A stretch of DNA of 64,000 nt, from the NCBI GenBank assembly GCA_003602415.1, contig QQSK01000013.1, forward strand, positions 89,929 through 153,928, in the 5' to 3' direction. Every line of letters begins with the position of its first letter. Position 1 is the first letter of the stretch. Below are positions 15,305 to 63,013 of this stretch, piece after piece. The notes below the pieces were generated by a model that did no database searches, was not told the DNA's origin, and worked only from the letters and a program-made list of their open reading frames with translations. The position numbers were made by a program, and so were the translations under genes. The DNA comes from Candidatus Poseidoniales archaeon. GTDB lineage: Archaea > Thermoplasmatota > Poseidoniia > Poseidoniales > Poseidoniaceae.

Positions 15305-15312
15305 GTGATTTT

Positions 15313-17510: not shown

Positions 17511-17534
17511 GTGTAGAGCCCACGGGACTTAGGT

Positions 17535-36787: not shown

Positions 36788-36946
36788 AACTGACGATTGT
36801 TGAGGTAACCTATAAGTAAATCTGATTTATTTTCCATAAAAATACACAAACCCTCCTCTACTTTCCGCTTTTCGGGGAGAGAAACCGTACTTTCGAAGAC
36901 GTTTTCGACCGCTTTCATCATAGAATAGTTGCTATTGGCGAGTAAC

Positions 36947-41887: not shown

Positions 41888-42349
41888 TTATCGGTTCTTT
41901 TGAGACAACATGTGTGTTCTGATGGCCTTGGCGATTTCCCAATCTGCCTTTTCTTCATCAGTTTCAGGATTAAATTGTGGTACAGGAATCGGGCGCATCA
42001 TCGAATCGATCGCTATCATGAAGAAGTAACCTTGACAAATTTCGGTTTTGCTCCAGTCTGACTTATTCATTGCCCATGCAGTAACCTTGGCACATGCAGT
42101 TCTGTTAGATGTGAATACCACCTTGCCGGTTACTTCGATTAGGTCACCCTGTCTTGCAGGTGCCTTAAACTCCAAAGTATCAATAGAAATGGTTACGAAT
42201 TCTCTGTGTGCAAATTTAGCACAAACGATACCAGCAGCCTTGTCCATTAGCGATAGTAATCGGCCACCAAACAAGGTGTTGTATGAATTTGTGTCTTGAG
42301 GAAACACTTCCTCAATCAAGGTTACAGGTTCGGTACTGTATGGCTCCAT
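41888..42349 (-). CDS. Hotdog-fold acyl-CoA thioesterase (YciA-like)
   Basis: VFPQDTNSYNTLFGGRLLSLMD. Confidence 0.9.
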   Translation of the reverse strand: MEPYSTEPVTLIEEVFPQDTNSYNTLFGGRLLSLMDKAAGIVCAKFAHREFVTISIDTLEFKAPARQGDLIEVTGKVVFTSNRTACAKVTAWAMNKSDWSKTEICQGYFFMIAIDSMMRPIPVPQFNPETDEEKADWEIAKAIRTHMLSQKNR

Positions 42350-43143: not shown

Positions 43144-43206
43144 TGGTACACATCTCCGTCGGTATTTTATGCCCGACTTGAGTGGGGAGGGGAGAGGGTG
43201 GCCCCT

Positions 43207-46200: not shown

Positions 46201-49041
46201 TCTTTGCAAAGATGGGACGTTCAAACAATCAATGGAAGCGTTGTATCTGAGTGGATCGAAGTATCCAACAGTACTGGAATCATCGGTGGTGATTTCAATT
46301 GGGCTGTTAACCTTGGATTAACAGCAGCGGGTCAAGCAACTTACAGATTCATGATCGACGGATATGAAGGCGGAGACACACTTTGCCCACCATCTCCAAT
46401 CATATCTGATTCTGATTGTGCGATTCCATTCAATCTTTCAATCGATACATATTCTCCAACATTGGTGAACATTTCTGTTCTGAAAGCATCCAATTATGAC
46501 CCGACAATCTGGACTAACTGGAGAGGCTTGGTAGATGACACATGGGTGCTTCCTAACGCTCAACAAAAGGTTAGAGTTCTAGCACAAGATATTCCTTCGC
46601 CTCCAACAACACTGGATATGTATTACTGGGTTGAATACGACCATGATCAAGACCAGGATGGCATCGCTGACCCTGATGAATACGCATTGCTTATTCTGAA
46701 CAGTGACGGTAATGCTCCAACAGCAAACTATTCTGGAACATTCAGTGATGATGCCAACAAGGGGCAAGACCCTCCTGGAAAAGTTAGTATCTACATCGAA
46801 GGTACTGACCTAGGAGGAAACCCAATCGATGGCGGTATGCCTGGATTTGAAGACGATTTGGTAACCTATGTTTCAATGGATGCAAAGACACCGAACATCA
46901 GGAATTTCTTCATCGAAGACTCTGATGGAAACCGTCTGCACAATCCAAACGAAGGTGCTCCATTCTATCAGGGGCCTTGGAATATGACAATGTACGCTGG
47001 CAATCAATATCACCTGATTGTTGAAGCTACAGACGAAAATGGTTGGAGAGATATCAACTACTTCGAAATCGATCTAGGTCCTGAAAATATGGTTGTCTAC
47101 TATTCTCCTCGCAATGAAACAGCATGGTCAGATTCTGACGACATTCAGATTGTTCCAGCCGGTAATGATAGCGACGGACCTAAGGTTGTCAGAATGGATG
47201 GAGGACGACTAATCGATCCGTTCGAGGATGAATTCTATCTTGATTTACCTATTAGGATGAATTGGGATATTATCGGAATCGAGTCCACTACCTATGTTCC
47301 TCAATTGAGAATCAAGGATATGGATAGAGATCCTTCTTTGATGAGTGAATCTGGTGGAAGGCACAAGCAACGCTGGGTCTACAGTGACGGTATCCAGTTG
47401 GATTACAGAAATGGAATCAGTCCAACCTTCACAGATATGTCTGAGCCTTACTCACAGAATGTTGAGTTAGCGTTCGTATTCCCTGGTGACACAATCTCCA
47501 TGGAAGGCAAGTATGCGTACTTGGATGGAATCAACAATGGAGTATACGTTCTGCCTGAAGGTGAATTTACTCTTGAAGTGACCAGAGAAGCAGCAATGAT
47601 GGATGGAAACAAGGGTTACCTTGCTTATCCAGCAGGTGGTGCAGATGGTTCTAGAACCGATGGCCCAACATTGCATACCATCGATGGTGGAGCATTCAAC
47701 ATCAACATTACAGCACCTCCACTATCAAATGAATATGTATACACTTTCAAACTGGTCAATCTACCAGATGGTGCTACTGACACTACTGCAACCATCTGTG
47801 ATGGTAACAATGCATTTGGATGCGCATCATTCAAGATTAAGGTAGATGGACAGAAGCCAGAAGTTGAGAAAGATTCCTGGTCTGTAAGTTCGGGAATTAA
47901 CCAAGAAGTTCTTGGAATCACTCTACCTTCTTCTACCATGCATTGTGTGGATGTACAAGCAATAGTTGAAGAGAATGCAGCATTATTGGCCGGAGAAGTC
48001 GATTTAATGTGGTCATTCTACTCTGATGCAGATTCTAATCTAACATGGCCAGTTTACGGACAGAGATTTGGTGCAGATGCACAATCTCATCCAATGGACT
48101 TGAAGATTCAAGGTGGCGACTACTTGCTCAGTGCTGATTGTGTTGACCTTTGGCCAGACCCACAAGATCCAACTCAGGCACAAATTACTACAGTCGATGT
48201 TGTCATGTGGATTGAAGGACGAGACTCAGCAGGATGGACTATCGATGGTGGCGGCCCTAACAGCGCAGGTGGAATCAGTTCTATCTGGTCATCAGACCCA
48301 GTTCATAACTCGCAATACAGGCTCGTTCACGAACAAGCCAAGTTCAGTGTAATCGATGTCAGAATGACGCCGAAGAGTCCAGAAGTAGGGGATGTTCCTG
48401 AACTAGAAATTTCACTTCAGAACATTGGAACCAAGGATGGAAACATTACACTTGAGGTGCAATCTGTCAAAGAAGGCGGATTCCCTACAACAGAAATCAC
48501 CTGGACTACAGATGAAATTGCTCAAGGAACAATGGCTAACGTATTCGTTACAGACTTAGAGATATTCGCAAACCCTACAAGTGGAATGTATTTCCTAATT
48601 GTAGATGCAGAAACCAATGAAGTACTTTGGAATGGTTCAGAGAACTCTAAGTCATTCAATGTCGCTGAAGCAAGCGATGATGAAGGATTTTTGTCAGGTT
48701 CTGGAATGTTGATAGTCATTGGATTAGCAACTCTGATTCTAATTCTATTGGTCGCAGTTGTAATCTTGGCACGAAGAGATTCTGGTGATGGTACTTACGA
48801 ATACGAGTATGAGTATGATGAGGAAGACAAGTCATACGCTGATATTCCGTCAGCCGGAACTGCAGCAGGGCCACCATCTTCAGGACCTCCATCTGCGGGG
48901 CCTCCTCCTACGTCCGTGGACCCATTGATGGCAGCAGCATTAGCTGAATTCCCACAATGGGATGAGGCTACTATCCAAGGATACTTCGATCAGGGCTGGG
49001 ATATAGACAGCCTACGTGATTGGGTTAACAGCAATCAGTGA
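43207..49041 (+). CDS. Very large membrane-anchored acidic surface protein
   Basis: Signal peptide; beta-rich repeats (GWFIDDF jelly-roll-like, CARDB-like LQNIG); C-terminal TM and Pro-rich tail. Confidence 0.85.
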   Translation: MNENKNGITALVLTCLMLITPLAGAADVTTFSNGGSDVTVEVRDSAEYTNYEDGTISLPSGDTVTSASMKISTDMATHETFTSINSETAQYVWDPVYNNQQTEYSTLTDFTYHEDTVQLVSGGFSTDFERSESSFFDHTVPPVYDGTGWQHGTLSEATVINDNCNTGNDCWGTNMYDWDNDYTNDDNGGGFSYSLITPEMEVDPSSHIARFSSWHGMHWTQTNPGSNPTNTYYDCGYVMVRNSSSPNFPPPDMGWSYIPFDATNSTGISYANGLYPIGSGNGKIQNCDGLTGTDYAIGGESTHPTTNPSGWATLAVNLNEHIHKYVQLKFVMSHNNGAGTPENTTMPGWFIDDFRIGDPLPQSGSMTVKGFTPQQSPNPGFPDGYGVLTMEQETTPTNSLTVTALRGGTTDIVVDKFGELMTGLEGPIVELWDIDSADYPVIDLRFDFDTGQYRLSTAVLHGINVGTRVGTGMNDTNVVLSPMIQDGVWQTSGGGQPLFYTPTLTDNTFTPTLYSTKFSQPIVGVTPVVVDDCTESPGVELNLRDNSIHNLTVGQKWIPDDPIFGFSSVVSYANPCGLSELWFDLEFGHSAEAVELDIANDGDIEWAMNEPAFGSFGRQTVFWAGYAEGVNHAMHESTLTLNTFGEATGGSFMLPMGADVSIADIILSDNTAGDFDLTLRSSGQEVSLGTMANQSLISYETVFPMFAFNDAINSLLTNPLLQASHIDNYGNEWATFHFDVANENAPSGTQVVFGHLDIVYEWDTTIGGSSNFDRELNQGIALGSGSTVEVPLSLSAGSGGAVMFSDLSVTTSTGYDSSLTLTGSPEGLYPNGDIVEAVSIHSVDSSTGTSFAESRLRMESSSGVVELAFSELSLFTEAYDPDNLVTMESSSYTEVGDEMHVTWRFRINTAWEDTAELRLYASLIAANGVNGMPGAVVLAPSNGNAIENDAMIASFELQNDAGVTQNLESASSNQNINLVGSIRLEGLDVAPDPTSYNLSLQRWDVQTINGSVVSEWIEVSNSTGIIGGDFNWAVNLGLTAAGQATYRFMIDGYEGGDTLCPPSPIISDSDCAIPFNLSIDTYSPTLVNISVLKASNYDPTIWTNWRGLVDDTWVLPNAQQKVRVLAQDIPSPPTTLDMYYWVEYDHDQDQDGIADPDEYALLILNSDGNAPTANYSGTFSDDANKGQDPPGKVSIYIEGTDLGGNPIDGGMPGFEDDLVTYVSMDAKTPNIRNFFIEDSDGNRLHNPNEGAPFYQGPWNMTMYAGNQYHLIVEATDENGWRDINYFEIDLGPENMVVYYSPRNETAWSDSDDIQIVPAGNDSDGPKVVRMDGGRLIDPFEDEFYLDLPIRMNWDIIGIESTTYVPQLRIKDMDRDPSLMSESGGRHKQRWVYSDGIQLDYRNGISPTFTDMSEPYSQNVELAFVFPGDTISMEGKYAYLDGINNGVYVLPEGEFTLEVTREAAMMDGNKGYLAYPAGGADGSRTDGPTLHTIDGGAFNINITAPPLSNEYVYTFKLVNLPDGATDTTATICDGNNAFGCASFKIKVDGQKPEVEKDSWSVSSGINQEVLGITLPSSTMHCVDVQAIVEENAALLAGEVDLMWSFYSDADSNLTWPVYGQRFGADAQSHPMDLKIQGGDYLLSADCVDLWPDPQDPTQAQITTVDVVMWIEGRDSAGWTIDGGGPNSAGGISSIWSSDPVHNSQYRLVHEQAKFSVIDVRMTPKSPEVGDVPELEISLQNIGTKDGNITLEVQSVKEGGFPTTEITWTTDEIAQGTMANVFVTDLEIFANPTSGMYFLIVDAETNEVLWNGSENSKSFNVAEASDDEGFLSGSGMLIVIGLATLILILLVAVVILARRDSGDGTYEYEYEYDEEDKSYADIPSAGTAAGPPSSGPPSAGPPPTSVDPLMAAALAEFPQWDEATIQGYFDQGWDIDSLRDWVNSNQ

Positions 49042-49047
49042 TTCATC

Positions 49048-49845
49048 ATGAATCTTGATTGGGAAGACATACATTGGAAAGACCCAGATGGTGGCACAAT
49101 TGTGCTGCATGGGATTCTTCCAACAGTAGTTCTGCCTAATGGCATGAGGCCCAGATTTAATTGGCATGGTTTAGGCATAATGGGCTCGAGTGAAGAGATT
49201 GAAGTTTGGACTGAAGAGGAAAAGGCAGAATTGAAAGATTCTGGAATAAATCTCGATAGTGCAATCCTGAATGGAGGGCTAGACAGTCTGTATTTGGAAA
49301 TGCTCACTTGGGTCGAAGGATTACAAGTGGGAAGATTCCCAGACCCAGAACCGCGCAGATTGCATAAGGCAGCAGTCAATCATGACCGTCCAGTTTTCTT
49401 TGCAGAACCGGATATGGATGATGAATCCTGGGCAACCTATCTCGAGAAAGAAGCGAAAGCAATGACTCGTCCTCGTAAATTATTGAAAATGATATTTGTT
49501 TCAAGACGTTGGAGAAAGTGCATCAAGAAAATGCGTAAGCACGTAATCGAACAACCGGTCCGAGAGCCAGATGGATTACAAGCAGCTAGTGCTCTTGCAG
49601 CCACCTGGTGGACTCTAAACAGAGAAAACTCGGAACAGGATTTGAATGAGGAAAAAGACTTGAGATTCGCAGGACGCCTAAGAGGAGGATTGGCGAAATT
49701 GAGAGAGGATTTCAAAGATGATGCATTACTCTTAGTGCCAATACAACAGGCTGGTAGAAAATCTATGCTAGCCGCATTAGAAAAACTTCCAGAACCAGAG
49801 GAGAGTTCTTCACTTGCCTCCTCCTCGGATGGAGAGGAGGAGTGA
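49048..49845 (+). CDS. Hypothetical protein
   Basis: 265-codon ORF, operon-packed. Confidence 0.7.
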   Translation: MNLDWEDIHWKDPDGGTIVLHGILPTVVLPNGMRPRFNWHGLGIMGSSEEIEVWTEEEKAELKDSGINLDSAILNGGLDSLYLEMLTWVEGLQVGRFPDPEPRRLHKAAVNHDRPVFFAEPDMDDESWATYLEKEAKAMTRPRKLLKMIFVSRRWRKCIKKMRKHVIEQPVREPDGLQAASALAATWWTLNRENSEQDLNEEKDLRFAGRLRGGLAKLREDFKDDALLLVPIQQAGRKSMLAALEKLPEPEESSSLASSSDGEEE

Positions 49846-50387
49846 TTATGAGCGGTTCAAATAAAATCGATGTTCGTGTCGATAACCTTCTGGTGAGATT
49901 CACCCCAACACCTGCTGTAGACCTTGAAGAAGCGGTTGAGAGACTTGGTGGAGTAGTCAATGGCGACGTCATTATCAAGATGTTAGATGCTCCTAGAGCG
50001 ACTTTGATTATCGATGCTGAAGGTCGAATTATTGTCCATGGAACACATCGTATCGAAGCAGCCAGAGCAGCAGCAAAGGAAATGCTACTGCGAATGGGAA
50101 GAGATGATTCAGGACTGGTTACCGAATTAGGACCAATCGTAGCCTCATTTGATTTTGGCGAAACTGTACCAATTCACAATATTCGTTCAAATTTAGGAAG
50201 CGGCACTTCCTCTGTTGATGAAAGACTTGGCTGCCTTAGAATAGAAGACTCTCGACATGATCTGGAATTATTGATTTGGCCAAATGGTCGCTGTGTAGCT
50301 CTGAATGCTCGACACCCTAACATGGTGGCAATGTCTGCAGTTCATTGGAAGTCGAAATTCGCTGATAAGAAATCTCTCAAGGCGTGA
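49842..50387 (+). CDS. Degenerate TATA-binding-protein-like protein
   Basis: 181 aa, two repeats: PRATLIIDAEGRIIVHG / HDLELLIWPNGRCVALN, plus VDNLLVRF / GPIVASF. Confidence 0.6.
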   Translation: MIMSGSNKIDVRVDNLLVRFTPTPAVDLEEAVERLGGVVNGDVIIKMLDAPRATLIIDAEGRIIVHGTHRIEAARAAAKEMLLRMGRDDSGLVTELGPIVASFDFGETVPIHNIRSNLGSGTSSVDERLGCLRIEDSRHDLELLIWPNGRCVALNARHPNMVAMSAVHWKSKFADKKSLKA

Positions 50388-51235: not shown

Positions 51236-51291
51236 ACCAGCCCCCCAAAGAGTTCATGACCTTGGATATATTCGCACGGTTTGGTGGAAAC

Positions 51292-52422
51292 ATGAAGAGA
51301 GTGTTACTTATCTCAATCCTCATGTTATGTTTGCTTGTTCCTATGAATGCACAAGCACAATTTCCTCCGATCGGTGTAGAAGTCGAATGTGACCAGTCTA
51401 CCATCAATATCAATGTACACCCTGAACAGAATGAGCCGGTCTCAGTTTCTTGCACGGTCAAGAATACAGGTTCAGTTTCTCAAAATATCGATATTGAGAG
51501 TGAATTAGATGGTAACGATTTCTCTCTGGTTCTATCTGAAGACACATTTGAGCAAGTAGAGGCAGGTGGTGAAGAACCCTTCATCGCAACGTTTTCTGCA
51601 TCACCAAGAATCGAGGTCTTGTCTGAAGATTTTACAATTACTGCAAGAATTACCAGTTGGGGTACTGAGCCAATAATGATTCCTTGGGGTCAATTCAATT
51701 CGACCTCAGAGGTTGGAGGAACAGTCAACTCTTTGCCATATTCTAGAATGGATTTGGAAGTCTCAAACCCTTCTACAAGGAACATCGAAGTTTCTGAAGA
51801 AGCAACCATTCAATTCACGATTTTCAATGATGGAAATCGAATAGACAATCTTGAGGTCGTGATTGTAAATCAGCAAGAAATTGAAGATGCTGGTTTCAAA
51901 TTCGTTTCAGACCCGTTCTTCCGTGCTACTGTGAATCCAGGAGCATCTTCTGACCAAGGCAATATTATTCTTGAAGCACCTAGTGATGCTTCCAGTGAGA
52001 TTTCAATACAGGTCGAACTTCTAGCATATTCTAAACTTGATACCAATGCTGAAGCCAGTGAAGTTTCAATTCGTGTAGTGGTTGCAGCATCTAGCGGAGG
52101 CGGGGGCTCAATCGGCCTTGATGACTTTGAAACACTTGATGGAGACAGTATGGCAATGATTGGAATGGCCGCTGGTGGCCTATTCGGTGTCATCATCCTA
52201 TTGGTCATCATCTCAAGGCTGACCAAGAAAGCAGGTAAGCAGAAAATTGCTGCAAAGGAAGCAAAGAAAGCGGCTAAGGCTGAGCGCAAAGCGGGACGTG
52301 CTTCAAAGAAAGCCGATGTTGCAGAAGAAGAATTCGATGATGATTTCGACGATGATTTGGATTTAGGAGATCTCGACGACCTTGACGACCTCGATGACGA
52401 CTTCGATTTCGACGACCTTTGA
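51292..52422 (+). CDS. Membrane-anchored secreted Ig-like protein with an acidic tail
   Basis: Signal peptide, NxGN repeats, TM segment, Lys/Ala stretch then Asp-rich C-terminus. Confidence 0.78.
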   Translation: MKRVLLISILMLCLLVPMNAQAQFPPIGVEVECDQSTININVHPEQNEPVSVSCTVKNTGSVSQNIDIESELDGNDFSLVLSEDTFEQVEAGGEEPFIATFSASPRIEVLSEDFTITARITSWGTEPIMIPWGQFNSTSEVGGTVNSLPYSRMDLEVSNPSTRNIEVSEEATIQFTIFNDGNRIDNLEVVIVNQQEIEDAGFKFVSDPFFRATVNPGASSDQGNIILEAPSDASSEISIQVELLAYSKLDTNAEASEVSIRVVVAASSGGGGSIGLDDFETLDGDSMAMIGMAAGGLFGVIILLVIISRLTKKAGKQKIAAKEAKKAAKAERKAGRASKKADVAEEEFDDDFDDDLDLGDLDDLDDLDDDFDFDDL

Positions 52423-52520
52423 CGATTTCTTAAATCGGCGGCTAAATTTTTCCACCCTTCTAATGTGTTTCACAGGCCTTTCATTCATGGTAACAGTCAT
52501 AGGCGTAGTGGCTAAGGAAA

Positions 52521-52541
52521 CACCTACCCTAAGGGTAGGTG
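52521..52541. promoter_or_regulatory. Perfect hairpin overlapping the fabI SD
   Basis: CACCTACCC TAA GGGTAGGTG; ATG at 52548. Confidence 0.55.
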
Positions 52542-52547: not shown

Positions 52548-53342
52548 ATGCTTGGTTTACAAGGTAAAGTTGCATTCGTTTTTGGCGTGGCCAGTGAAGA
52601 CTCAATTGCATGGGCTATTTGCAAAAGTTTAGCCGATGCAGGAGTCACTCTGTATCTGGGATATCAGAAGAGATTCATGTCTCGTGTATTCCAATTGAAA
52701 GACAAACTGCCAGCCATTGCGGGATTCTATCCATTGGATGTTGCAAACGATGCGGACACCAAAGAATTCTTCGATGCATTCGGCAAAGAGAATCCCGGCA
52801 TGAAAGCTGACATCTTGATTCATGCTATCGGTTTTGCACCACGAGAATGTTTTGATAGGCCGATATTATTCGTTGATGATGAAAGTATCAATACTGCATA
52901 CACAATTTCTGCAAACTCATTGCAACGTTGCCTAAAATTCGCATTACCTTATCTAAATCCTGGCTCATCAACAATCACTCTAACCTATGCGGCTTCTACA
53001 AGGCACGTCCCTTCCTATGGAATCATGAGTATGGCAAAAGCAGCACTAGAATGCTGGACTAGAGAATTAGCTTGTCATCTTGGGCCTGAAGGACACCGAG
53101 TCAATGCGATATCTAGTGGGCCGATTAGAACGATTGCTGCTAGCGGTATTCCTGGGTTTGACAACATCCTTGACCATGTTGCTGCCAATTCGCCACTGCG
53201 TCGAAATGTTACACAAACAGATGTTGCAGGATGCACAACATGGTTGGCAAGCCCTCTGTCATCTGGTGTGACTGGACAATGTATACACGTCGATGCTGGA
53301 TATTCGATCACTATGGTTCCTCCAAGCATTATGGGTGAGTGA
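52548..53342 (+). CDS. fabI: Enoyl-ACP reductase
   Basis: GVASEDSIAWAI, HAIGFAP, Y-GIMSMA-K (Yx6K), RVNAISSGPIRT. Confidence 0.92.
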   Translation: MLGLQGKVAFVFGVASEDSIAWAICKSLADAGVTLYLGYQKRFMSRVFQLKDKLPAIAGFYPLDVANDADTKEFFDAFGKENPGMKADILIHAIGFAPRECFDRPILFVDDESINTAYTISANSLQRCLKFALPYLNPGSSTITLTYAASTRHVPSYGIMSMAKAALECWTRELACHLGPEGHRVNAISSGPIRTIAASGIPGFDNILDHVAANSPLRRNVTQTDVAGCTTWLASPLSSGVTGQCIHVDAGYSITMVPPSIMGE

Positions 53343-53346
53343 AAAA

Positions 53347-56300
53347 ATGACAATCACTACGACAAACGGTAAGCAAGTCGATGGCCTAAATCAGGCTCCT
53401 TTCGAGCCTGTTGCGGTTATTGGAATGGCTGCATTGATGCCAGATGCCACTTCAATGGAAGAGTTTTGGCAGAATATTATCGATGCGCATGTCTCTATCA
53501 AAGAGGTATCCAAAGATAGATGGGACCCAGATATCTATTGGGAGAATGGGGCTCCAGGCAACGTTACCGAAGGCAAGACATATTCTAAAATCGGAGGATT
53601 CGTAGAAGACTATGAGTTCGATTGGCGAAGGTGGAGGCAACCTCCAGGTACTCTTCCACAAATCGACCCATGTCAACTTTGGGCGGTAACCGTATCAGCA
53701 GATGCAATCGATGATGCAGGATACGGAGAAGGTGGGAAAACACTGGACAGAGCAAGGACTGGAGTCATTTTCGCTAATGCTTTAGGGGGGGAAAATCGCT
53801 CAGAATCAAACATCAGAATTTTTAGTTCTGAAATGAGGAAGATTGCTCTAGATAACGGAGCAACTCCAGAACAAGCAGATGCGATGGTAGAGAAAATGTG
53901 CGAGGGCAAACCTCGTATCGATGAAGATACAATGCCAGGAGAATTGGCTAATGTAGTCAGTGGGAGAGTTGCAAATCTTCTAGATCTGCAAGGTCCAAAT
54001 TATTCCACAGATGCGGCTTGTGCTTCGTCTATGGCTGCACTTCTAGACGCATGTAGACTTCTACAAACACGCCAGGTAGACACAATGCTAGCAGGTGCAA
54101 CAGACCGTTGCATGGAAGCTCCGACCTACGCTAAGTTTAGCGCAATCGGCGCACTTTCTCCAAGCCACTCTACTCCTTTCGATGCCCGTGCTAATGGATT
54201 CGTTATGGGTGAAGGAGCAGGTGTTCTTCTTCTCAAGAGATTGTCTGATGCAATCGATGCCGGTGACGACATCAAAGCAGTAATTCGCGGAGTAGGTGGT
54301 TCTTCGGATGGTAGAGGGAAAGGGATAACCGCTCCTAGTCAAAGAGGGCAAGTCCAAGCGGTAAGTCGAGCATATTCACAAGCGGGTTACGAGCCTTCAA
54401 CAGTAGAGTTAGTCGAAGCGCATGGTACTTCAACCAAGGTTGGTGATGCAACGGAATTGTCGACATTGTCTCTATTGTGGACAGGCTTGGATGGGGGAGA
54501 CCACATCGCAGTGGGTTCAGTCAAGAGTCAAATTGGGCATCTGAAAGCGGCTGCAGGAATTGCTGGAATCATGAAAGCATGTAATTCAGTATATCACAAG
54601 ACAATACCTCCTAGTGCAGGGTTCCAAACTCCAAACCCAACGGTTGAATGGGACGAGATACCATTTTTCGTACCAACAGAAGCTAGAGACTGGCCAGAGC
54701 CAGAATCTCACCCACGTAGGGCAGGAATCTCAGCATTCGGCTTCGGTGGAACAAATTTCCACGTAGCAGTTGAGGGCTATGACCTCGAATATCACTCCAA
54801 ATTAGTAGAACACTGGAATGGGAGATGGGAAGCATATGCAGGAATCGAATCTTCTTCATCTGAAGCCAAACCAACTATGACGCACGAGGAGTTGAAGGCT
54901 GTTGAAGGCGGATTACTACTATTGTCTGGTGACTCGATAGATTCTCTCAAGTCAAAATTGAGTGCACTTACATTCTCTGGTCCAAACTTTGACGATGATC
55001 CACGAGGCATGCGTCTATCATTTACTCTAGACTCTCACTGGTCTTTCGATGTTAAAGACACAGTCAGAATGGCTTTGTCAGCCACCAGTTGGGCTGAGTT
55101 TAACAAACGTAAGGACTTGGCAATCAAGGCTATGGATGACAAGGAGAAATGGGGCTTTTTGATGAGTCAAGGCATCATGATTAGCGATACTCCTGCACTG
55201 CCTAAACAAGCAAAAGTCGCACACATGTATCCTGGTCAAGGAAGCCAATATGTTGGTATGACCAACGACTTACATTCTCGTTTCAGTGGCGTAGGCGATG
55301 TTTGGGACAAGGCTGATGTTACCATGGTCGATGTTTTGGATGGAGAGACATTGTCTTCTTTCGTACTTCGTGATGGATTAACCGCTGAAGAAATGAAAGA
55401 GGCTGAGCACAAACTCAAGCAGACTGAATATACTCAACCCGCAATGTTGACAGCAGATTTAGCAATTGAAGCGGCACTGAATGCTCACGGACATAAGCCA
55501 GATATGGTGGCTGGGCACAGTTTAGGAGAATATGCAGCACTAATGAGTGCAGGTATTCTTGACATGGATGGTGCATTGAGAGCGGCAGCAGCTCGTGGTA
55601 CTGAAATGGGTAGTGTCGAAATTGATGACAAAGGCTTGATGGCTAGTGTAACCGCACCTTACGATAGAATCGCAGAGATTATCGAAGAAGTGGACGGTTA
55701 TGTCATTGCAGCAAATAAAAACTCACCGAAGATGACGGTAATCGCTGGAGAAACCGAACCCGTAAAGCAAGCAATGTCACGCTTTGAGGCTGAAGGTTTC
55801 CAGTGTGTTGCATTAGCAACAAGCCACGCATTCCATTCTCGAATCGTTGCACCTGCAAACGAACCACTTCGCAGATTCTTAGAAGGGCTGGACATTAGAT
55901 GGCCAAAAATCCCGATCACCAGCAACGTTGACGGCGGGTGGTATCCAATGGATGATGGCGGCGATTCAAAGGCAGCAATACTATCCAAACTTGCACCTCA
56001 AATGGCATCAAGTGTTGAATGGACTTCGCAGATAAATTCGATGTATGATGCAGGAGCACGATTATTCCTAGAAGTAGGACCTAAGCGTGCACTCACAGTA
56101 TTCGCATCACAAATCCTTGAAGGCAAACAAGCCCTTCCAATAATGACAAATCACCCTAAGGCCGGAGGAATTGCAACGTTCCTTACCGCTTTAGGAACGC
56201 TAGCTCTTGCTGGAAGAGTTCCCGAATGGCCTGGCCCTAACAGCGCTCACTTAACTCCAGCATTCCGTGCAGGACCTATCGAGGCAGCAGGCGGAGCCAA

Positions 56301-59300
56301 GCAGCCTGCAACTCCTCTGAAGGAGAGAAGCAGGCCATTGCCATCAAAGGGTGGCCAAACAGTTACTCAAACCGTCATCCAATCGAGTGAAACATACGTT
56401 GATCCCGATGCAGCAAAGAAGGCATTAGTGGGCGAGTTAATCGCTGCACAGACTGGATATCCTGCAAAATTCTGTCAAGGTAATGTCGACATGAGAGCGG
56501 TTCTTGGTATGAGCGATGAGCAAATCCAAGTCGTAGTATCTTCAGTTCATGCAAGGTGTAGTACTGACCCCGATTGGGACATTACGATAGCAAAAACTCC
56601 TGGAGATATCACTAGATGGATAACTTCAGCACCAGCAATTGGCTCCAAGTCCAAGTCGATGAAACACGATGATAGAGATGACGACCCGTTCGTAATCACG
56701 GGTATTTCAATGGGCCTTCCTGGTGGAGAAAGAGTGTTTGATGAAGGTAATTTCGAGAAATTGGTGAGGGGTGAAACTTGTATCACCGAAGTGACCGACG
56801 AATACAAACAACGCCTTCTAGACAAAAATATCGTACGTCTAATAAAAGGAAGAGACGGCAGTGTCGGAATGGATGCTGCTACTGAATTTGGAGATATACC
56901 TCAATTAGCTGGAGTGAAATCCGCTTTCGATCCTACAGAAGAGTTCGGAATCGATGCCAAAGTCGCAGCAGCTTGGGATATTGCAACTCAGTTATCTTGT
57001 GCGGCTGGATTAATCGCATTGAAAGATGCAGGTATTCCATTAACTCCTGTGGAACAGGTTGGTAAAGGTGGATTGAGATTGATTCGTTCTTGGCAAATGC
57101 CATCCGCTTACAGAGATAGAACTGGAATAGTATTCGCATCTTGCTTCGCAGGCCATCAAATGGCTGCAAGGCATGCTAAGGTCAATGGAGACGATGGTGA
57201 GGGAAGATTCGACAGAAGATATCTTTTCCAAATATTGAATATGGGCCATTCACAATTCGCTCAGCATGTTGGAATTAGAGGTCCGAATACCACAATTAAC
57301 CTAGCATGTGCTTCTGCAACTGCAGCATTCGGCGTCGCAGAAGATTGGCTTGCCAACGATAGATGTGACCGTGTAGTCATAATCTCTGCAGATGATGTAA
57401 CGGGAGACGACCTATGGGAATGGATTGGTTCAGGTTTCGCTGCCAGCGGAGCTGCAGCAACCAATAACTCGGTTGAAGAAACCGCATTACCTTTCGACAA
57501 GAGGCGCAATGGTTTGATTCTGGGAATGGGTGCAGCAGCATTCGTAGTCGAACGAAAATCAGAATCCGACGCTAGAGGAGTTCAGCCGATGGCTGAGTTA
57601 TTGGGAACTAGAATTGCAAATTCCGCATTCCATGGAACTCGATTGGACGTTGAGCATGTCGCTAGTACCGTTGATGATTTCGTTTCTGAAATGGAAGAAA
57701 GATGGGGATTAGACAGACACCAAATGGCTCCTGATACCGTGTTCTTTTCCCATGAAACATATACTCCTGCTCGTGGAGGTTCAGCTCAGGCTGAAGTCAA
57801 GGCCCTCAGAGACACATTTGGTGCTAGTACGGATTCAATAGTCATTGCAAACACCAAAGGTTTCACAGGACATCCAATGGGTGTAGGAATTGAAGATGCT
57901 GCCATGTTCTATGGTTTAATGACCGGCAGAATACCGCCAATCGCCAATCACAAAGAAACAGATCCAGAACTTGGAAATCTGAAATTATCCAAGGGGGGAG
58001 ATTATTCCAATCTGAAGTATGGAATGAGATTTGCAGCAGGGTTTGGAAGTCAAATCGGTTTGTCATTAGTTCGAAAGTGTGAATTCACAGGAGATAGAAT
58101 CAACAAACAAAAACTGCTGACCTGGAACCAATCTCAGGCAGGAACTACCAATTTAGAATTAAGAGTATTACAAAACAAACTGGTTGCATATGTTGATGCA
58201 GACAACAATTTACACGGCGGAATTCTAGGAGATGAATACGCAGTACCACGAGAAATAGATAGCATCGAGGCTCCAGTAATCGAATCTAGTCCTGCTCCAA
58301 AACCAGAACCTGTGGCTCCAGCACCTGCTGAACCAACTCCTGTTGCGTCGGCGCCTTCAGGTGATACGACTTCTATCGTAATCGAAGTCGTAGTCAAGCA
58401 CACAGGATATCCTGCTGACTTTGTAGAGTTAGACCAAGACCTAGAAGGTCAACTTGGAATAGATACTGTCAAGCAAGCAGAAATAATGGCAGATATCAGA
58501 GAAAAATTCGGTTTACCTATCGATGAAGACTTCGTACTTTCAGATTATCCAACACTGAATCATATGATCGCCTACATCCACAAGATGCAGGGAGGAAGTC
58601 CTGCTCCTGTTGCACCAAAAACAGTAACTGAAGTTTCAACTCCAGAACCAGTTCCAAAAGCAGAACCAGCACCTGCGCCAGCACCAGTTGCTAGCGAGCA
58701 ATCTTCAGCAGTAGATATTCAGCCGAAATTAATCGGAGTAGTGGTCAAGCACACAGGCTATCCCGAAGATTTCATCGAAATGGACCAAGACCTTGAAGGA
58801 GAATTGGGAATCGATACGGTCAAGCAAGCCGAAATCATGGGTGATGTAAGAGAAATTTTCTCATTACCTATCGATGAAGACTTCGTTCTATCCGAGCACC
58901 CTACTCTGAACCACTTCGTAGCCTACATTCAGAAGATGACAGGCGGAAACGCTCCAGTGCCTACTCCAGCACCGGTCGAGACGACAAGTCCAGCCGCTCC
59001 AACGCCTGTTGAAGTTCCAGCAACTCCAACGGTTTCAGCAGATAGCGGAGACATTCAGCCGAAATTAATCGGTGTAGTGGTCAAGCATACAGGCTATCCT
59101 GAAGATTTCATCGAAATGGACCAAGACCTAGAAGGAGAATTAGGAATTGATACGGTTAAACAAGCCGAAATCATGGGTGACGTAAGAGAAATTTTCTCAT
59201 TACCAGTGGATGAAGACTTCGTTCTATCCGATCACCCTACTCTGAATCACTTCGTAGCCTATATTCAGAGAATGACAGGCGGAAGCACTCCGGCATCTAC

Positions 59301-62300
59301 TCCAGCACCAGCGCCGGTTGAAGTGAAAAGTCCAGTTGCTCCAACACCTGTTGAAGCTCCAACAACTCCAACGGTTTCAGCAGATAGCGGAGAAATACAA
59401 GTGAAATTAATCGGTGTAGTGGTCAAGCATACAGGCTACCCAGACGACTTCATTGAAATGGACCAAGACCTAGAAGGCGAACTAGGAATCGATACGGTCA
59501 AGCAAGCCGAAATCATGGGTGACGTAAGAGAAATTTTCTCATTACCAGTGGATGAAGACTTCGTTCTATCCGACCACCCTACTCTGAACCACTTCGTAGC
59601 CTACATTCAGAAGATGAAAGGAGGAGGTGCACCAGCGCCAGCGCCAGTTGCGAAACCAGTTCCACAACCAGTTGCACCTCAGCCAGTGCCTTCAACACCT
59701 GTTAGCAATTCCAAGCCAATAGCCGAATCTACCACAAGACGATGGCAGGTAGAGGTCGAACCATGCCCTGCAGTAGCCGAAGGTCTTCCAATTGGAGGAA
59801 CAATCGTGCTAACACAGGATAGCTGGGGCGTAGCAGATGCTTTGGCAGATAGGCTAGTCGAAAAGGGCCTATCTGTAGCGAAGATTGGATTCGAATTCGG
59901 TGCTAAATCAGTTACTGAACAAGAGGAGTTGTCGGGTCATACCTTCAGAGCAGACCCAGGTAGTGAAGAGCAAATCGCCGAGGTTTGCTCTAGAATTTCA
60001 GGTGTTGCTGGAATCATCCACTTAGCACCACTTTCCCTAACCGGAAGTTCTTGGGAAGCCGATGGTCCATCAAATCAGGTGAATCTTGCAGCACAATCTT
60101 GGTTTGGATTACTGAAAGGCTTAGATTCACAATTAGGAGTAATCTCCTCAGGCATTGTTGGTAGTGTAACCGCTTTGGATGGAAGACATGGAAATAGGGG
60201 CGAGCGATTCAATTCACTTGCTTGCGCAGCAAGTGGAGTGACCAAGTCCTATGCCTTTGAGAGGGAAAACCTCAGATGTCGTGCACTTGATTTACACCCT
60301 GAATTGATTATTGATGCAGCATCAGCAGCAGAAGTAATCGACAACGATTTATTCACCGCAGGCGGAGAAATCGAAATAGGAATCGACAGAGATGGCCGAA
60401 GATGGACGATGGTCTGTTTCGCAGAAGATGTCGTTGAAGATGTTGAACCATTACAATCCGATGATTTGTGGTTGGTCAGTGGTGGTGGCTCTGGAGTAAC
60501 AGCAGCATCAATAATCGGTGTATCAAGCGCTAGTAACGGCGCTGGTGCGACATTCCTACTACTTGGTAGAAGCAAACTCGTTGAAGAAACATCGGGATGG
60601 TTGGATTGGAGCGATGACCAACTCAATCAGAGGAAGATGGAACTTAGAGAATCATTGATCGCCGAATCTGAATCTGGAAAAGTGACAATGGTGGAATGGA
60701 ATAATGCTTGGACTAAATTAACTCGAAGTATGGATATTTATCGAACGATAAGCGATATCGAAGCAAGTGGAAACAATGCAGAGTACCACTCAGCAGATGT
60801 TACCGATTCTGAAGCGATTAAGTCCGCAGTCAATGGAAGAGATGTAACCGGTATCGTTCACGGTGCAGGTCTTGAAGAATCTAAACTGGTAGCAGACAAA
60901 GCATGGAACACATTCGACTTGATTGTTAGAGTCAAGGTCGATGGATGGAAAGCATTAGCCTCTGCTGCAGGAGATTCTCTACGGTTTGCCTGTGCGTTCA
61001 CAAGCGTAGCGGGTAGATTTGGAAATCGTGGTCAAACAGATTATGCAGCGGCCAACTCAATTTTGGACGCAGAAATGGCTCGCATGACAGCTAACTCTGA
61101 ATGCAGAGCGGTTGCTATTGGATGGACAGGATGGAGAGATGTTGGAATGGCAACTCGCGGCTCGATAGAAGCGGTGTTTGAGTCATCTGGAATTGAGACA
61201 TTGTCTGTTGAAGATGGTGTCGAGATATTCGTCAAAGAAGCATTAGCAGGCGGCAAAAGAAGAGTTCTAGGCTGCGGCTCATTAGGAAATATGGACCTAT
61301 TCGATTCATTTAGAGAAGCGCCTTTGAAATTACCTGCAGAAATGGCTGCATCGATTGCAGACCCTCGCAGATTCCCTCTTATCGACAAACTCTTGTCTAT
61401 TGAGGAAGGCGAATCCTTAGTATCTCAGTGTACTCTTTCAATGCAAGAACATCCATTCTTGGTAGATCATGCAATCGATGGAGTTCCTTACCACCCAGGC
61501 GTAATGGCGTTGGAGATGTTTGCAGAAAACTCTCTACTGCTGATGCCAAGTCATTGTTTAGCAGGTTTCGAAGAAGTCACATTTGGTTTACCTGTCAAGA
61601 TAATGAAAGGCGATATGACTGTTAGAGTTGAAGCAACATTATCCAGAACCGATGGTGACTTGTCTTGGGTAAAATGCCGCTTAGTTTCAGATTTGACTAA
61701 TTCAAAGGGTGAAGTATTCGGTGAACCAAGATTACATCACGAAGCGATGGTACGACTGGTTGCAACATCAGATGACCTTCGCCCATTCTTACAAAATGAA
61801 GTTGACTCCTTACCAGCAATAGGAACTCCACCTCATGGTGATTTACTACATCACTCTAGTTTCATCTATCTGAGATATTTCCACGGCCCAAGGTTCCAAT
61901 CTCATGGCGGAGTTCTACGTGGCGTTGAAAACGGCGTAGACGGTATTGCACTGATGCGCCACCAACTGCCTGCAACCGACCAATTTGCATTGGAAAGCGA
62001 TGGTGAAGAAGTTCTGTTGGATGCTCTACCAATGCTAATCGAAGCAGGTTTCCAAAATGCTGGATTGGCAGCCATGGAAAGCGATGGATTCTCGAGTCTA
62101 CCTATTGGAATCGAGTGGACTACAATGTTGCGAGTTCCCGATGCAAACGAATCTTTGCGAATGCGTTCAGTCAAAGTTGCTACCGAGGATGCGGGAATAA
62201 CTGTACACGATGTGGTAATCGTTGGAGAAGATGATGCTCCTGTTCTATCGCTCAAGGGTCTACGACTCAAAGCGATGGGCCAAGTGCCTGAAGATCAGAG

Positions 62301-62319
62301 ATTCAGTCTTGAGAGGTGA
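53347..62319 (+). CDS. Type I PKS / PfaA-like fatty acid synthase: KS-AT-(ACP-like)-KS-ACPx4-KR-DH
   Basis: KS1 DAACASS/EAHGT/GHL; AT GHSLG, HAFHS; KS2 NLACAS/SHET/GHP; 4x LGIDTVKQAEI; KR GGGSGVT, YAAAN; DH HAIDGVPYHP. Confidence 0.93.
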   Translation: MTITTTNGKQVDGLNQAPFEPVAVIGMAALMPDATSMEEFWQNIIDAHVSIKEVSKDRWDPDIYWENGAPGNVTEGKTYSKIGGFVEDYEFDWRRWRQPPGTLPQIDPCQLWAVTVSADAIDDAGYGEGGKTLDRARTGVIFANALGGENRSESNIRIFSSEMRKIALDNGATPEQADAMVEKMCEGKPRIDEDTMPGELANVVSGRVANLLDLQGPNYSTDAACASSMAALLDACRLLQTRQVDTMLAGATDRCMEAPTYAKFSAIGALSPSHSTPFDARANGFVMGEGAGVLLLKRLSDAIDAGDDIKAVIRGVGGSSDGRGKGITAPSQRGQVQAVSRAYSQAGYEPSTVELVEAHGTSTKVGDATELSTLSLLWTGLDGGDHIAVGSVKSQIGHLKAAAGIAGIMKACNSVYHKTIPPSAGFQTPNPTVEWDEIPFFVPTEARDWPEPESHPRRAGISAFGFGGTNFHVAVEGYDLEYHSKLVEHWNGRWEAYAGIESSSSEAKPTMTHEELKAVEGGLLLLSGDSIDSLKSKLSALTFSGPNFDDDPRGMRLSFTLDSHWSFDVKDTVRMALSATSWAEFNKRKDLAIKAMDDKEKWGFLMSQGIMISDTPALPKQAKVAHMYPGQGSQYVGMTNDLHSRFSGVGDVWDKADVTMVDVLDGETLSSFVLRDGLTAEEMKEAEHKLKQTEYTQPAMLTADLAIEAALNAHGHKPDMVAGHSLGEYAALMSAGILDMDGALRAAAARGTEMGSVEIDDKGLMASVTAPYDRIAEIIEEVDGYVIAANKNSPKMTVIAGETEPVKQAMSRFEAEGFQCVALATSHAFHSRIVAPANEPLRRFLEGLDIRWPKIPITSNVDGGWYPMDDGGDSKAAILSKLAPQMASSVEWTSQINSMYDAGARLFLEVGPKRALTVFASQILEGKQALPIMTNHPKAGGIATFLTALGTLALAGRVPEWPGPNSAHLTPAFRAGPIEAAGGAKQPATPLKERSRPLPSKGGQTVTQTVIQSSETYVDPDAAKKALVGELIAAQTGYPAKFCQGNVDMRAVLGMSDEQIQVVVSSVHARCSTDPDWDITIAKTPGDITRWITSAPAIGSKSKSMKHDDRDDDPFVITGISMGLPGGERVFDEGNFEKLVRGETCITEVTDEYKQRLLDKNIVRLIKGRDGSVGMDAATEFGDIPQLAGVKSAFDPTEEFGIDAKVAAAWDIATQLSCAAGLIALKDAGIPLTPVEQVGKGGLRLIRSWQMPSAYRDRTGIVFASCFAGHQMAARHAKVNGDDGEGRFDRRYLFQILNMGHSQFAQHVGIRGPNTTINLACASATAAFGVAEDWLANDRCDRVVIISADDVTGDDLWEWIGSGFAASGAAATNNSVEETALPFDKRRNGLILGMGAAAFVVERKSESDARGVQPMAELLGTRIANSAFHGTRLDVEHVASTVDDFVSEMEERWGLDRHQMAPDTVFFSHETYTPARGGSAQAEVKALRDTFGASTDSIVIANTKGFTGHPMGVGIEDAAMFYGLMTGRIPPIANHKETDPELGNLKLSKGGDYSNLKYGMRFAAGFGSQIGLSLVRKCEFTGDRINKQKLLTWNQSQAGTTNLELRVLQNKLVAYVDADNNLHGGILGDEYAVPREIDSIEAPVIESSPAPKPEPVAPAPAEPTPVASAPSGDTTSIVIEVVVKHTGYPADFVELDQDLEGQLGIDTVKQAEIMADIREKFGLPIDEDFVLSDYPTLNHMIAYIHKMQGGSPAPVAPKTVTEVSTPEPVPKAEPAPAPAPVASEQSSAVDIQPKLIGVVVKHTGYPEDFIEMDQDLEGELGIDTVKQAEIMGDVREIFSLPIDEDFVLSEHPTLNHFVAYIQKMTGGNAPVPTPAPVETTSPAAPTPVEVPATPTVSADSGDIQPKLIGVVVKHTGYPEDFIEMDQDLEGELGIDTVKQAEIMGDVREIFSLPVDEDFVLSDHPTLNHFVAYIQRMTGGSTPASTPAPAPVEVKSPVAPTPVEAPTTPTVSADSGEIQVKLIGVVVKHTGYPDDFIEMDQDLEGELGIDTVKQAEIMGDVREIFSLPVDEDFVLSDHPTLNHFVAYIQKMKGGGAPAPAPVAKPVPQPVAPQPVPSTPVSNSKPIAESTTRRWQVEVEPCPAVAEGLPIGGTIVLTQDSWGVADALADRLVEKGLSVAKIGFEFGAKSVTEQEELSGHTFRADPGSEEQIAEVCSRISGVAGIIHLAPLSLTGSSWEADGPSNQVNLAAQSWFGLLKGLDSQLGVISSGIVGSVTALDGRHGNRGERFNSLACAASGVTKSYAFERENLRCRALDLHPELIIDAASAAEVIDNDLFTAGGEIEIGIDRDGRRWTMVCFAEDVVEDVEPLQSDDLWLVSGGGSGVTAASIIGVSSASNGAGATFLLLGRSKLVEETSGWLDWSDDQLNQRKMELRESLIAESESGKVTMVEWNNAWTKLTRSMDIYRTISDIEASGNNAEYHSADVTDSEAIKSAVNGRDVTGIVHGAGLEESKLVADKAWNTFDLIVRVKVDGWKALASAAGDSLRFACAFTSVAGRFGNRGQTDYAAANSILDAEMARMTANSECRAVAIGWTGWRDVGMATRGSIEAVFESSGIETLSVEDGVEIFVKEALAGGKRRVLGCGSLGNMDLFDSFREAPLKLPAEMAASIADPRRFPLIDKLLSIEEGESLVSQCTLSMQEHPFLVDHAIDGVPYHPGVMALEMFAENSLLLMPSHCLAGFEEVTFGLPVKIMKGDMTVRVEATLSRTDGDLSWVKCRLVSDLTNSKGEVFGEPRLHHEAMVRLVATSDDLRPFLQNEVDSLPAIGTPPHGDLLHHSSFIYLRYFHGPRFQSHGGVLRGVENGVDGIALMRHQLPATDQFALESDGEEVLLDALPMLIEAGFQNAGLAAMESDGFSSLPIGIEWTTMLRVPDANESLRMRSVKVATEDAGITVHDVVIVGEDDAPVLSLKGLRLKAMGQVPEDQRFSLER
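58370..59620 (+). repeat. Four tandem intragenic ACP repeats (about 340 bp period)
   Basis: Near-identical repeats; Thr codons at 58465, 58816, 59152 and 59494, separated by Pro/Ala/Thr linkers. Confidence 0.9.
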
Positions 62320-62323
62320 TTTT

Positions 62324-63013
62324 GTGGAGTTAATGGATCCTCCATCGGGTCCACGAATGCTAATTGCTAGAATGCCGATTTCCGATTGTCGAAGTGTACT
62401 AGCTGAAGACATTCCTCGTGCGACAGCCAAACGTCTTGCAGACCATAATTCGGGCCGCCTATTATTGGAGAAATGTTTGGAGCACTGGGAATTGCCTATC
62501 GGCTCGCTAGAAGTTCTACGAACCCAACATCGAGCACCTTACCTGTCTTGGTTAAACGGGGTTTGGAGAAATGAACCATTGCCGGGAATTAGCATTGGAC
62601 ATTCAGGAGATTGGGCGGTTTGTGCTCTCATCGAACCTGGGTACTGGATAGGTATTGATGCAGAGCCAAAAGATAGGGGGATTCAGACCAATGCATTCGA
62701 CATGATGGCCAAAGGTAAAGAGTTAGATTTTCTAATTGAAAATTCAAAAATAGCAATTGAAACATGGACCGCAAAAGAGGCGGTTCAAAAGGCCGAAAAA
62801 CTAGGAATGCACCTAAACCCAAGAGACATCAATTTGACCGAATATAATGTTGAATCTTTCATTCATGATGACCTGATGGTTTCAGTCTCATGGAGGGAGG
62901 CAGGAGATGCTCCAAGGTCTGCTGAAGACGACCTCTTGGATGCTACTTTAGAAGCAATGAAAGATAATCCTAACTTTTCGGTTGGATGTAAAACAACCAG
63001 AAATAATGTTTGA
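62324..63013 (+). CDS. Sfp-type 4'-phosphopantetheinyl transferase
   Basis: ISIGHSG, IGIDAE, WTAKEAVQKA; GAGGTGA SD overlapping the PKS stop. Confidence 0.88.
   Translation: MELMDPPSGPRMLIARMPISDCRSVLAEDIPRATAKRLADHNSGRLLLEKCLEHWELPIGSLEVLRTQHRAPYLSWLNGVWRNEPLPGISIGHSGDWAVCALIEPGYWIGIDAEPKDRGIQTNAFDMMAKGKELDFLIENSKIAIETWTAKEAVQKAEKLGMHLNPRDINLTEYNVESFIHDDLMVSVSWREAGDAPRSAEDDLLDATLEAMKDNPNFSVGCKTTRNNV

Follow-up and report, generated by a model that had tools for sequence, protein, structure and literature searches.

In a 64,000-nucleotide stretch of contig QQSK01000013.1 from Candidatus Poseidoniales archaeon (assembly GCA_003602415.1, positions 89,929 to 153,928 of the forward strand; hereafter the window, whose own numbering is used unless another contig is named), we examined a three-gene operon encoding a FabI-like enoyl reductase (ER), a very large megasynthase and a phosphopantetheinyl transferase (PPTase). 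A first-pass annotation of this DNA had described three genes 4 nt apart that would form an acyl carrier protein (ACP)-dependent fatty acid or polyketide synthase. All three genes were recovered on the + strand, with 4-nt gaps from the fabI stop to the synthase start and from the synthase stop to the PPTase start:

52548-53342, + strand: fabI-like enoyl reductase, 264 aa, ATG start, TGA stop; proposed trans-acting ER
53347-62319, + strand: iterative megasynthase, 2990 aa, ATG start, TGA stop
62324-63013, + strand: Sfp-type 4'-phosphopantetheinyl transferase, 229 aa, GTG start

Pfam scanning of the megasynthase detected ketosynthase (KS) in two stretches, an acyltransferase (AT), four PP-binding domains, a ketoreductase (KR) and a dehydratase (DH) of the PS-DH family, and no thioesterase domain, which confirms the proposed set of KS, AT, ACP, KR and DH with a separate FabI reductase and without a thioesterase. 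Based on Pfam, alignments and motif positions, the domain order is KS1-AT-pseudoACP-KS2-ACPx4-KR-DH, and the individual domains are as follows:

53404-54780, + strand: KS1 (PF00109, PF02801, PF16197; Cys225, His359, His398)
55225-56214, + strand: acyltransferase, malonyl-type (PF00698, 122.7 bits; fabD model, 194.9 bits)
56434-56680, + strand: degenerate ACP-like domain, or pseudoACP (about residues 1030-1100; Asp at the attachment position, LGMSD)
56764-58206, + strand: KS2, the second condensing domain (about residues 1140-1620; Cys1321, His1469, His1509)
58378-59661, + strand: four tandem ACPs (PF00550 in four stretches; Thr1707, Thr1824, Thr1936 and Thr2050, codons at 58465, 58816, 59152 and 59494)
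59734-61326, + strand: ketoreductase, structural and catalytic halves (PF08659, 78.8 bits; GGGSGVTAA at residue 2379, Tyr2566)
61375-62289, + strand: dehydratase of the polyketide synthase (PKS) type (PF21089, 33.7 bits; PF14765, 24.8 bits; His2708 in HxxxGxxxxP; YFHGPRF at residue 2844)

The first-pass annotation was right as far as it went, and it had missed the second KS, the pseudoACP and the threonine (Thr) at the carrier sites. The best PDB relatives of KS1 are KS-AT didomains of type I PKSs, and the KR matches PKS KR structures in PDB. The AT contains GHSLGE at residue 723 and, as had been noted, HAFH at residue 827, a motif taken as marking malonyl specificity. The pseudoACP resembles ACP1 in BLASTP (E 2e-6, 23% identity over 56 residues) and is poorly conserved, giving a tblastn match in only one of 80 relatives' loci. 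In KS2, the Cys and both His residues are in register with FabF in the alignment. The Cys motif is kept in 91/91 family rows and all three motifs were matched by regular expression in 86 of them; in three of the remaining five rows the residues are present by eye, and the other two (L027 and L029) have the second His, with the first His motif unmatched. Because the active-site Cys is retained in all 91 rows, KS2 is not a chain length factor (CLF) in the strict sense, despite the CLF label used in Type R clusters (see below).

The operon is real and native to the archaeon. Archaeal neighbours lie upstream, including genes for TBP (49842-50387), TatD and Cdc6/Orc1 (32536-33777), and no mobility genes were found among the 20 neighbouring open reading frames (ORFs) scanned, which bears out the earlier impression of native flanks. 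Close relatives of the synthase carry source names such as Candidatus Poseidoniaceae or Poseidoniales archaeon. Of 61 related genomes, 45 have a synthase match (33/36 in family f1, 2/2 in f2 and 9/22 in f3), representing 8 of 12 genera, and a match was likewise found in 42/42 Poseidoniaceae genomes of a phylum-wide draw. The genes up265, TBP and TatD stand upstream of fabI and the synthase in 9/10 loci of other genera and families, and the order up265-TBP-TatD-fabI-synthase-PPTase is kept beyond this genus. An assembly chimera or a very recent bacterial transfer might be suspected from the many bacterial relatives of the synthase and from an operon GC content of 46.0%, 3 points above the genome mean of 42.9%. 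The probability of such an event is negligible and the idea is already contradicted, considering that 10 independent assemblies of other genera share the flanks, that contigs of two further public runs cover the whole stretch, and that the Poseidoniales synthases form a clade mirroring the families on the archaeal side of the tree described below.

A search with KS2 retrieved 539 cluster representatives at E < 1e-30, and relatives of the synthase were found at no fewer than 582 loci when one genome per species was scanned, that is, at least 582. Bacteria among the matches listed are Actinomycetota (including Planobispora takensis, Spirillospora and Nostocoides), Acidobacteriota, Myxococcota and Calditrichia, while the archaea listed are Heimdall-, Hod- and Promethearchaeota and other Thermoplasmatota; a protein atlas provided only weak leads on taxa. 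In Thermoplasmatota, 103 of 301 genomes have a synthase match, and several families outside Poseidoniales are nearly saturated (f10 8/9, f19 19/20, f28 5/6 and f29 12/12). The same domain order was observed in every sufficiently long locus of the 80 examined, which are the best 80 of the at least 582. We further analyzed 91 KS2 rows by a quick tree method; the tree is unrooted, contains seven Asgard rows of odd composition, and takes its bacterial rows from the same best 80 loci. The 11 Poseidoniales rows form one clade (support 100) that splits into f1 and f2+f3 as the families do, and all 20 archaeal rows lie across a branch (support 99) from the 71 bacterial rows. Neither a donor nor a direction of transfer is readable from this tree.

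This architecture has been described in bacteria. Shulse and Allen defined in 2011 the Type R clusters of secondary lipid synthases, in which a single pfaA homologue with the order KS-MAT-CLF-ACP(3-6)-KR is followed by a PPTase gene (PMC3098273); their hosts include Koribacter, Solibacter, Elusimicrobium and Roseiflexus, genes for acetyl-CoA carboxylase (ACC) are linked to some of the clusters, one of them intervening in Koribacter, and the product was given as unknown (PMC3098273). Both the KS1-AT-KS2-four ACPs-KR(-DH) order and the downstream PPTase gene are found here. This likeness is drawn from the published architecture, and Korobacteraceae and Bryobacteraceae are among the KS2 relatives in our search. 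The operon differs from Type R in its archaeal host, in having fabI within the operon, and in a 'CLF' domain that keeps Cys-His-His; the main text of PMC3098273 does not mention archaea and contains 0 occurrences of 'threonine'. A follow-up literature search returned no later study of Type R, and no dissection of an archaeal Pfa-like synthase was among the results listed in searches on archaeal synthases, Type R and the KS-AT-KS order. The system is not unique to this archaeon: the architecture is that of bacterial Type R, is common in other Thermoplasmatota and is present in Asgard archaea. Judged by its architecture, the operon is not a wholly new system but belongs, as an archaeal representative, to the Type R family, which is uncharacterised, and its FabI partner is specific to the lineage.

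Synthases of Asgard archaea and other Thermoplasmatota (L034-L038, L054, L070 and L081) share the KS1-AT-KS2-ACPn-KR-DH order and the Thr-type carriers and are located on the archaeal side of the tree, but they differ in their partners, which include ACC subunits, an alpha/beta hydrolase and BioY, with no fabI nearby. The genes linked in Heimdallarchaeota encode a carboxyltransferase, an NMO (PfaD-type ER)-KS-AT protein, an alpha/beta hydrolase, a biotin carboxyl carrier protein (BCCP) and a PPTase; at locus L035, the NMO domain resides on this separate upstream protein of 1506 aa. In Hodarchaeota (L054), NMO is fused in front of the synthase, at its N-terminus, and genes for a carboxyltransferase, BCCP and biotin carboxylase are linked. 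As these NMO domains show, relatives do use a PfaD-type ER, in line with the statement of the first-pass annotation on bacterial Pfa systems. Carboxyltransferase, BioY and biotin carboxylase genes flank the synthase at another Thermoplasmatota locus, and a multidomain ACC gene lies beside it in Planobispora. The linked ACC-type genes in relatives point to malonyl-CoA chemistry. Some additional features were noticed at L035 (Heimdallarchaeum aukensis, 13197-17652), where the synthase has mixed carriers (Ser/Thr/Ser) and apparently terminates in a stretch resembling a PPTase. After the synthase, the hydrolase gene is present in two copies (253-aa ORFs with identical Pfam scores) that enclose genes for a Csm6 HEPN protein and a free PPTase, an arrangement suggestive of a segmental duplication.

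Comparison with better-known systems places the synthase near PfaA. The top NCBIfam match of its KS1-AT portion is TIGR02813 (PfaA) at 974.2 bits, below the cut-off of 1010.1, and tandem ACPs, a KR and a PS-DH tail are present in both; an extra KS within the protein and FabI instead of PfaD set the present system apart. PfaB, PfaC with FabA-type DH domains, and PfaD were not found in the genome. Because the PfaA cut-off is not reached and PfaC/PfaD-type partners were not found in the genome, the cluster is Pfa-like but not a polyunsaturated fatty acid (PUFA) synthase. The type I fatty acid synthase ArsA/ArsD (Azotobacter phenolic lipids, Type P) and the heterocyst glycolipid synthase HglE (Type F) are likewise iterative and Pfa-like and keep long reduced chains on the carrier for a downstream enzyme, according to PMC3098273; by description they have other domain splits and are accompanied by type III PKS or terminal reductase partners, of which none was seen in the present operon. 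The enediyne synthase PKSE, by description, combines KS-AT-ACP-KR-DH-PPTase with a single ACP in one protein, unlike the present system with its second KS, four ACPs and separate PPTase gene.

The family-wide Thr at the carrier site is the most unexpected property of the operon. All four carriers read LGIDTVKQAEIM and have Thr as the attachment-site residue, which in LGIDT aligns with the Ser of the D-S motif in PigH and AcpM; the hallmark Ser of PF00550 is replaced by Thr in each of the four domains. Examination of 279 sites from 90 loci revealed Thr at 273, Ser at 6 and nothing else, with all four Thr codons in use (Thr 44/48 and Ser 4/48 in Poseidoniales; Thr 229/231 and Ser 2/231 in other loci). 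Among the motif-bearing representatives at 50% identity, 109 are Thr-only, 5 Ser-only and 2 mixed, out of 118; in a set of 121 closer relatives, the motif was found in 118, all of them Thr-only, and the other three are short proteins without the carrier region. The Ser-bearing Poseidoniales belong to two genera that form one clade in the KS2 tree (support 100), and each of them keeps the PPTase gene beside the synthase. Judging from this pattern, a hydroxyl is plainly required at the carrier site and Ser can replace Thr; a site occupied by Thr or Ser only is what would be expected if Thr were the cofactor acceptor. We infer from these sequences that the Thr residues of the carriers may be modified by phosphopantetheine.

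The PPTase gene is consistent with such a role. Its product scores 25.3-25.7 bits against PF01648, at the cut-off of 25, and a profile of 12 orthologues matches Sfp at 8e-17. It shows the hallmarks of the Sfp type, being two-lobed and about 230 aa long with both motifs (GIDAE at residue 110 and WTAKEAVQK at residue 148); the G-x-D-x-E and W-x-x-K-E-x-x-x-K columns are invariant across the 12 orthologues, of which 11 match PF01648 and 10 match PF17837. It is found directly 3' of the synthase in 10/10 loci of other genera (seven detected by tblastn, the other three from their ORFs and motifs). Alternatively, the carriers might be dead, with Thr that cannot be phosphopantetheinylated and a gene that is a decaying or moonlighting relic. 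To our knowledge, Ser is the only phosphopantetheine acceptor known, Thr has no known precedent, and our literature search on Ser-to-Thr carriers returned nothing relevant. Such a relic is nevertheless very improbable: the reading frame of about 9 kb has no stops across dozens of genomes, all catalytic motifs are intact, the sites are confined to Thr or Ser at 279/279 positions with synonymous turnover, and the PPTase gene remains beside the synthase in all ten loci just mentioned.

FabI is the feature that separates the Poseidoniales operon from its relatives. The fabI product matches PF13561 at 226.7 bits (cut-off 27) and has the hallmarks of short-chain dehydrogenases/reductases of the FabI enoyl-ACP reductase type, including the Tyr-x6-Lys dyad, YGIMSMAK at residue 157, and the catalytic spacing Tyr147, Tyr157 and Lys164, in which an extra Tyr lies 10 residues ahead of the dyad Tyr. 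The gene is immediately 5' of the synthase in 10/10 loci from other genera and families. Its distribution follows that of the synthase: 44 of the 61 relatives have fabI, they belong to exactly the 8 of 12 genera with a synthase, and the two genes are always adjacent. No FabI match was detected in the 80 loci of the wider synthase family. As a partner reductase, FabI is seen only in Poseidoniales, where it has been gained or lost together with the synthase. In the genome, PP-binding domains were found only in the synthase, which also has the only strong KS matches (three more PF00109 matches score about 25-27 bits, one of them a DarB-like gene on contig C22), and FabA/FabZ (PF07977) had no match. 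With the only ACP and FabF-type KS found in the genome residing in the synthase, and without a FabA/FabZ match, FabI has no other evident client.

Considering these data, we favour, at a probability of roughly 60%, a native and vertically kept PfaA-like Type R synthase that makes an accessory, long and largely saturated acyl chain. The PPTase would load phosphopantetheine on the four tandem carriers, at Thr instead of Ser, and the AT would load malonyl units. KS1 and KS2, both predicted to be active, may share out the condensation steps, a division of labour that has been proposed for the paired KS domains of PUFA synthases. KR and DH would then reduce and dehydrate each beta-keto intermediate, and FabI would act in trans as the reductase of the enoyl-carrier, a role filled by a PfaD-type enzyme in the relatives. 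The finished chain might be handed from the carrier to an unlinked enzyme, which would be needed because neither a thioesterase nor a reductase domain is present in the synthase. A long, largely saturated chain is favoured because FabI is tied to the operon without another evident client and no isomerising dehydratase was found, and an accessory lipid is favoured over bulk membrane because the operon is dispensable within the order (see below). We infer the trans action of FabI and the degree of reduction, length, release and use of the chain from gene content and motifs, and the term 'fully reducing', like any product identity, should be taken as a prediction.

As to the degree of reduction, a specialised polyketide has to be considered, for example a polyene or a long chain bearing hydroxyl groups; reduction would then be partial, with FabI acting in few cycles or on another substrate. 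Mining tools file such marine archaeal clusters as T1PKS or hglE-KS: in marine archaeal genomes, T1PKS ranks second in size among the cluster classes (PMC10304266), and T1PKS/hglE-KS clusters are recorded in Poseidoniaceae (PMC10434046, retracted), in both sources as catalogue entries only. Type R as first described has no ER in its list of domains (PMC3098273). Tandem ACPs and a PS-DH are common to PUFA and heterocyst-glycolipid synthases, and the source genome also carries the DarB-like ketosynthase. A product of this kind is nonetheless improbable in our view, because the 4-nt gap couples fabI translationally to the synthase, the two genes are strictly co-inherited, the operon contains no FabA-type dehydratase/isomerase, terminal reductase or tailoring genes, and the DarB-like gene is confined to one of the 61 genomes. 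This gene (C22:80769-81902), which reaches 374 bits against a cut-off of 450 in the StlD/DarB family, was also tried as a downstream user of the chain and rejected, being found in the source genome alone. A gene of the FA_desaturase family (C22:83555-84409) lies 1.6 kb from it.

The accessory nature of the product is suggested by the distribution of the operon within the order. Thirteen genomes of four genera, which are 89-97% complete, lack both fabI and the synthase. In two of them (G049 and G051, with 5 and 1 contigs, respectively), up265, TBP and TatD are followed by the ABC transporter gene that in a relative comes after the operon, so that the operon block is cleanly missing. Genes for PlsC-like acyltransferases (PF01553), of which the source genome has three, were detected in 52/61 genomes and 12/12 genera, including the four synthase-free ones; the PlsC-like acyltransferase was accordingly rejected as a synthase-coupled partner. 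Because the four genera without the block keep PlsC and the site is otherwise intact in the two genomes examined, the operon is dispensable within the order and its product is unlikely to be a core membrane lipid. The same observation weakens the bearing on the lipid divide that had been attributed to the locus.

A primary fatty acid synthase, whose bulk acyl chains would be esterified by PlsC to glycerol-3-phosphate in bacterial-type or mixed membranes, is the most serious alternative, although we consider it unlikely. It would account for the synthase being the sole ACP/KS system found in the genome, and for the presence there of PlsC-like genes, a GpsA-type glycerol-3-phosphate dehydrogenase and geranylgeranylglyceryl phosphate (GGGP) synthase, with no match to the glycerol-1-phosphate dehydrogenase (G1PDH) family. 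It also agrees with published views of Marine Group II (MGII, the Poseidoniales), to which a putative fatty-acid pathway and PlsC without G1PDH have been ascribed (PMC6962369, PMC6461757), and with the absence of intact glycerol dialkyl glycerol tetraethers (GDGTs) reported for MGII-dominated water (PMC6962369). Furthermore, an acyl-CoA delta-9 desaturase homologue (G000:C16:14378-15526, - strand; PDB 4ymk, 1.9e-46) occurs in 37/61 relatives, in 5/8 synthase-bearing and 0/4 synthase-free genera, and two incomplete genomes of the same genus without a synthase match carry it as well; this co-distribution is suggestive, in kin that are not independent. On the other hand, a primary role is difficult to reconcile with the 13 genomes of four genera that lack fabI and the synthase, with the otherwise intact site in G049 and G051, and with the PlsC-like genes kept in synthase-free genera. 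Fatty acids could instead be taken up, since all genera encode fatty-acid degradation (PMC6461757), and a full archaeal ether-lipid gene set has been reported for the order (PMC6461757). A second FA_desaturase-family protein is encoded at G000:C1:54627-55625, with His boxes that are AlkB-like by eye; alkB genes have been described in many Poseidoniia genomes (preprint 10.1101/2025.10.24.684404).

Supply and release have also been sought among genes of the region. The window biotin carboxylase gene (36929-38287), previously proposed to supply malonyl-CoA, is unlinked and occurs in 60/61 genomes and 12/12 genera regardless of the synthase. The 4HBT thioesterase gene (41888-42349), proposed to release the product, is equally unlinked and occurs in 56/61 genomes and 12/12 genera irrespective of the synthase; its nearest curated family is YciA, far below the cut-off. 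Both are housekeeping genes of the region. A carboxyltransferase gene (G000:C5:76087-77523) lies beside a second biotin carboxylase gene (C5:78424-79740) 10-14 kb before the window; this carboxylase is 43% identical to the window copy, and the pair is a candidate acyl-CoA carboxylase and an equally good candidate for malonyl-CoA supply.

Several points weigh against an accessory acyl chain made by this synthase. The genome (G000) is 89% complete, and a missing ACP, KS or FabZ is one that was not found and is not proven absent. No release enzyme was identified. The operon-free genera may be a single clade, so that four losses cannot be claimed, and kin are not independent. All NCBIfam FabI equivalogs fall below their cut-offs (best NF005615, 216.4 bits vs 391), for which reason the reductase should be named FabI-like, and its client is suggested by adjacency and co-occurrence alone. 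A single literature search on the point returned no precedent for Ser-to-Thr carriers, and the whole scheme fails if Thr is unmodified. The literature searched contains no product, holo-protein or activity for this operon or any Type R cluster. A weak hint of expression comes from 14 short, near-identical contigs of one RNA-library run that match fabI and the synthase, with no contigs matching the operon in a second RNA run; these contigs may be carried-over DNA, and transcription is not demonstrable from them.

A bolder and rather doubtful extension would combine Thr-linked phosphopantetheine throughout the family (at least 582 species genomes, and most Poseidoniaceae) with de novo acyl chains rewired through FabI, which desaturase and PlsC would turn into ester lipids on glycerol-3-phosphate in mixed MGII membranes. 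If this were true, the family would use a so far undescribed form of a cofactor attachment that is regarded as always being on Ser, installed by cognate Sfp-type PPTases, and the most abundant surface archaea of the ocean would have genuinely mixed membranes. For the membrane lipids of MGII, of which there is no culture, no G1PDH gene was found and intact GDGTs were not seen where these archaea dominate, and the compact three-gene unit offers an expressible test of acyl-chain synthesis in them. The operon also places Poseidoniales in a single synthase family with other Thermoplasmatota and Asgard archaea, and cultured bacterial carriers such as Planobispora takensis or Nostocoides could reveal the chemistry of this family. 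The Thr carrier site, if modified, would widen the rule of phosphopantetheinylation, which matters for annotation and for the engineering of tandem-ACP synthases.

Upstream of the operon, the fabI leader (52487-52541) contains an invariant box, ATGG-AA-AGTCATAG, and the following element:

52521-52541, + strand: perfect 9+9 palindrome, CACCTACCC-N3-GGGTAGGTG, ending 7 nt before the fabI ATG

Its 3' arm includes a Shine-Dalgarno-like AGGTG. The palindrome is invariant in 8/8 aligned leaders of the same genus, whose mean identity is 71%, and was found exactly in 14 loci (12 distinct ones of the same genus plus L001 and L011, both from the source genome itself). In this genome it is the sole copy at up to 2 mismatches. 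The exact palindrome does not occur in other families, one of which (L023) shows another small hairpin at this position. The element is a candidate operator or translation-masking hairpin. A scan for bacterial promoters and terminators was no richer than shuffled sequences (22 vs 19.6 and 12 vs 10.9, respectively).

Other genes of the window include a 1947-aa ORF (43198-49041) and, after it, a 265-aa ORF (49048-49845), neither of which has a Pfam match, although other genera and families conserve the two ahead of TBP. Between TatD and fabI, a 388-aa protein (51256-52422) with a signal peptide, a single membrane helix at the C-terminus and a highly acidic tail is encoded in f1 and f2, but not in f3. 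Rfam at the gathering threshold detected only two tRNAs in the window, which are tRNA-Arg genes (13144-13307; ACG and GCG anticodons) located 17 nt apart.

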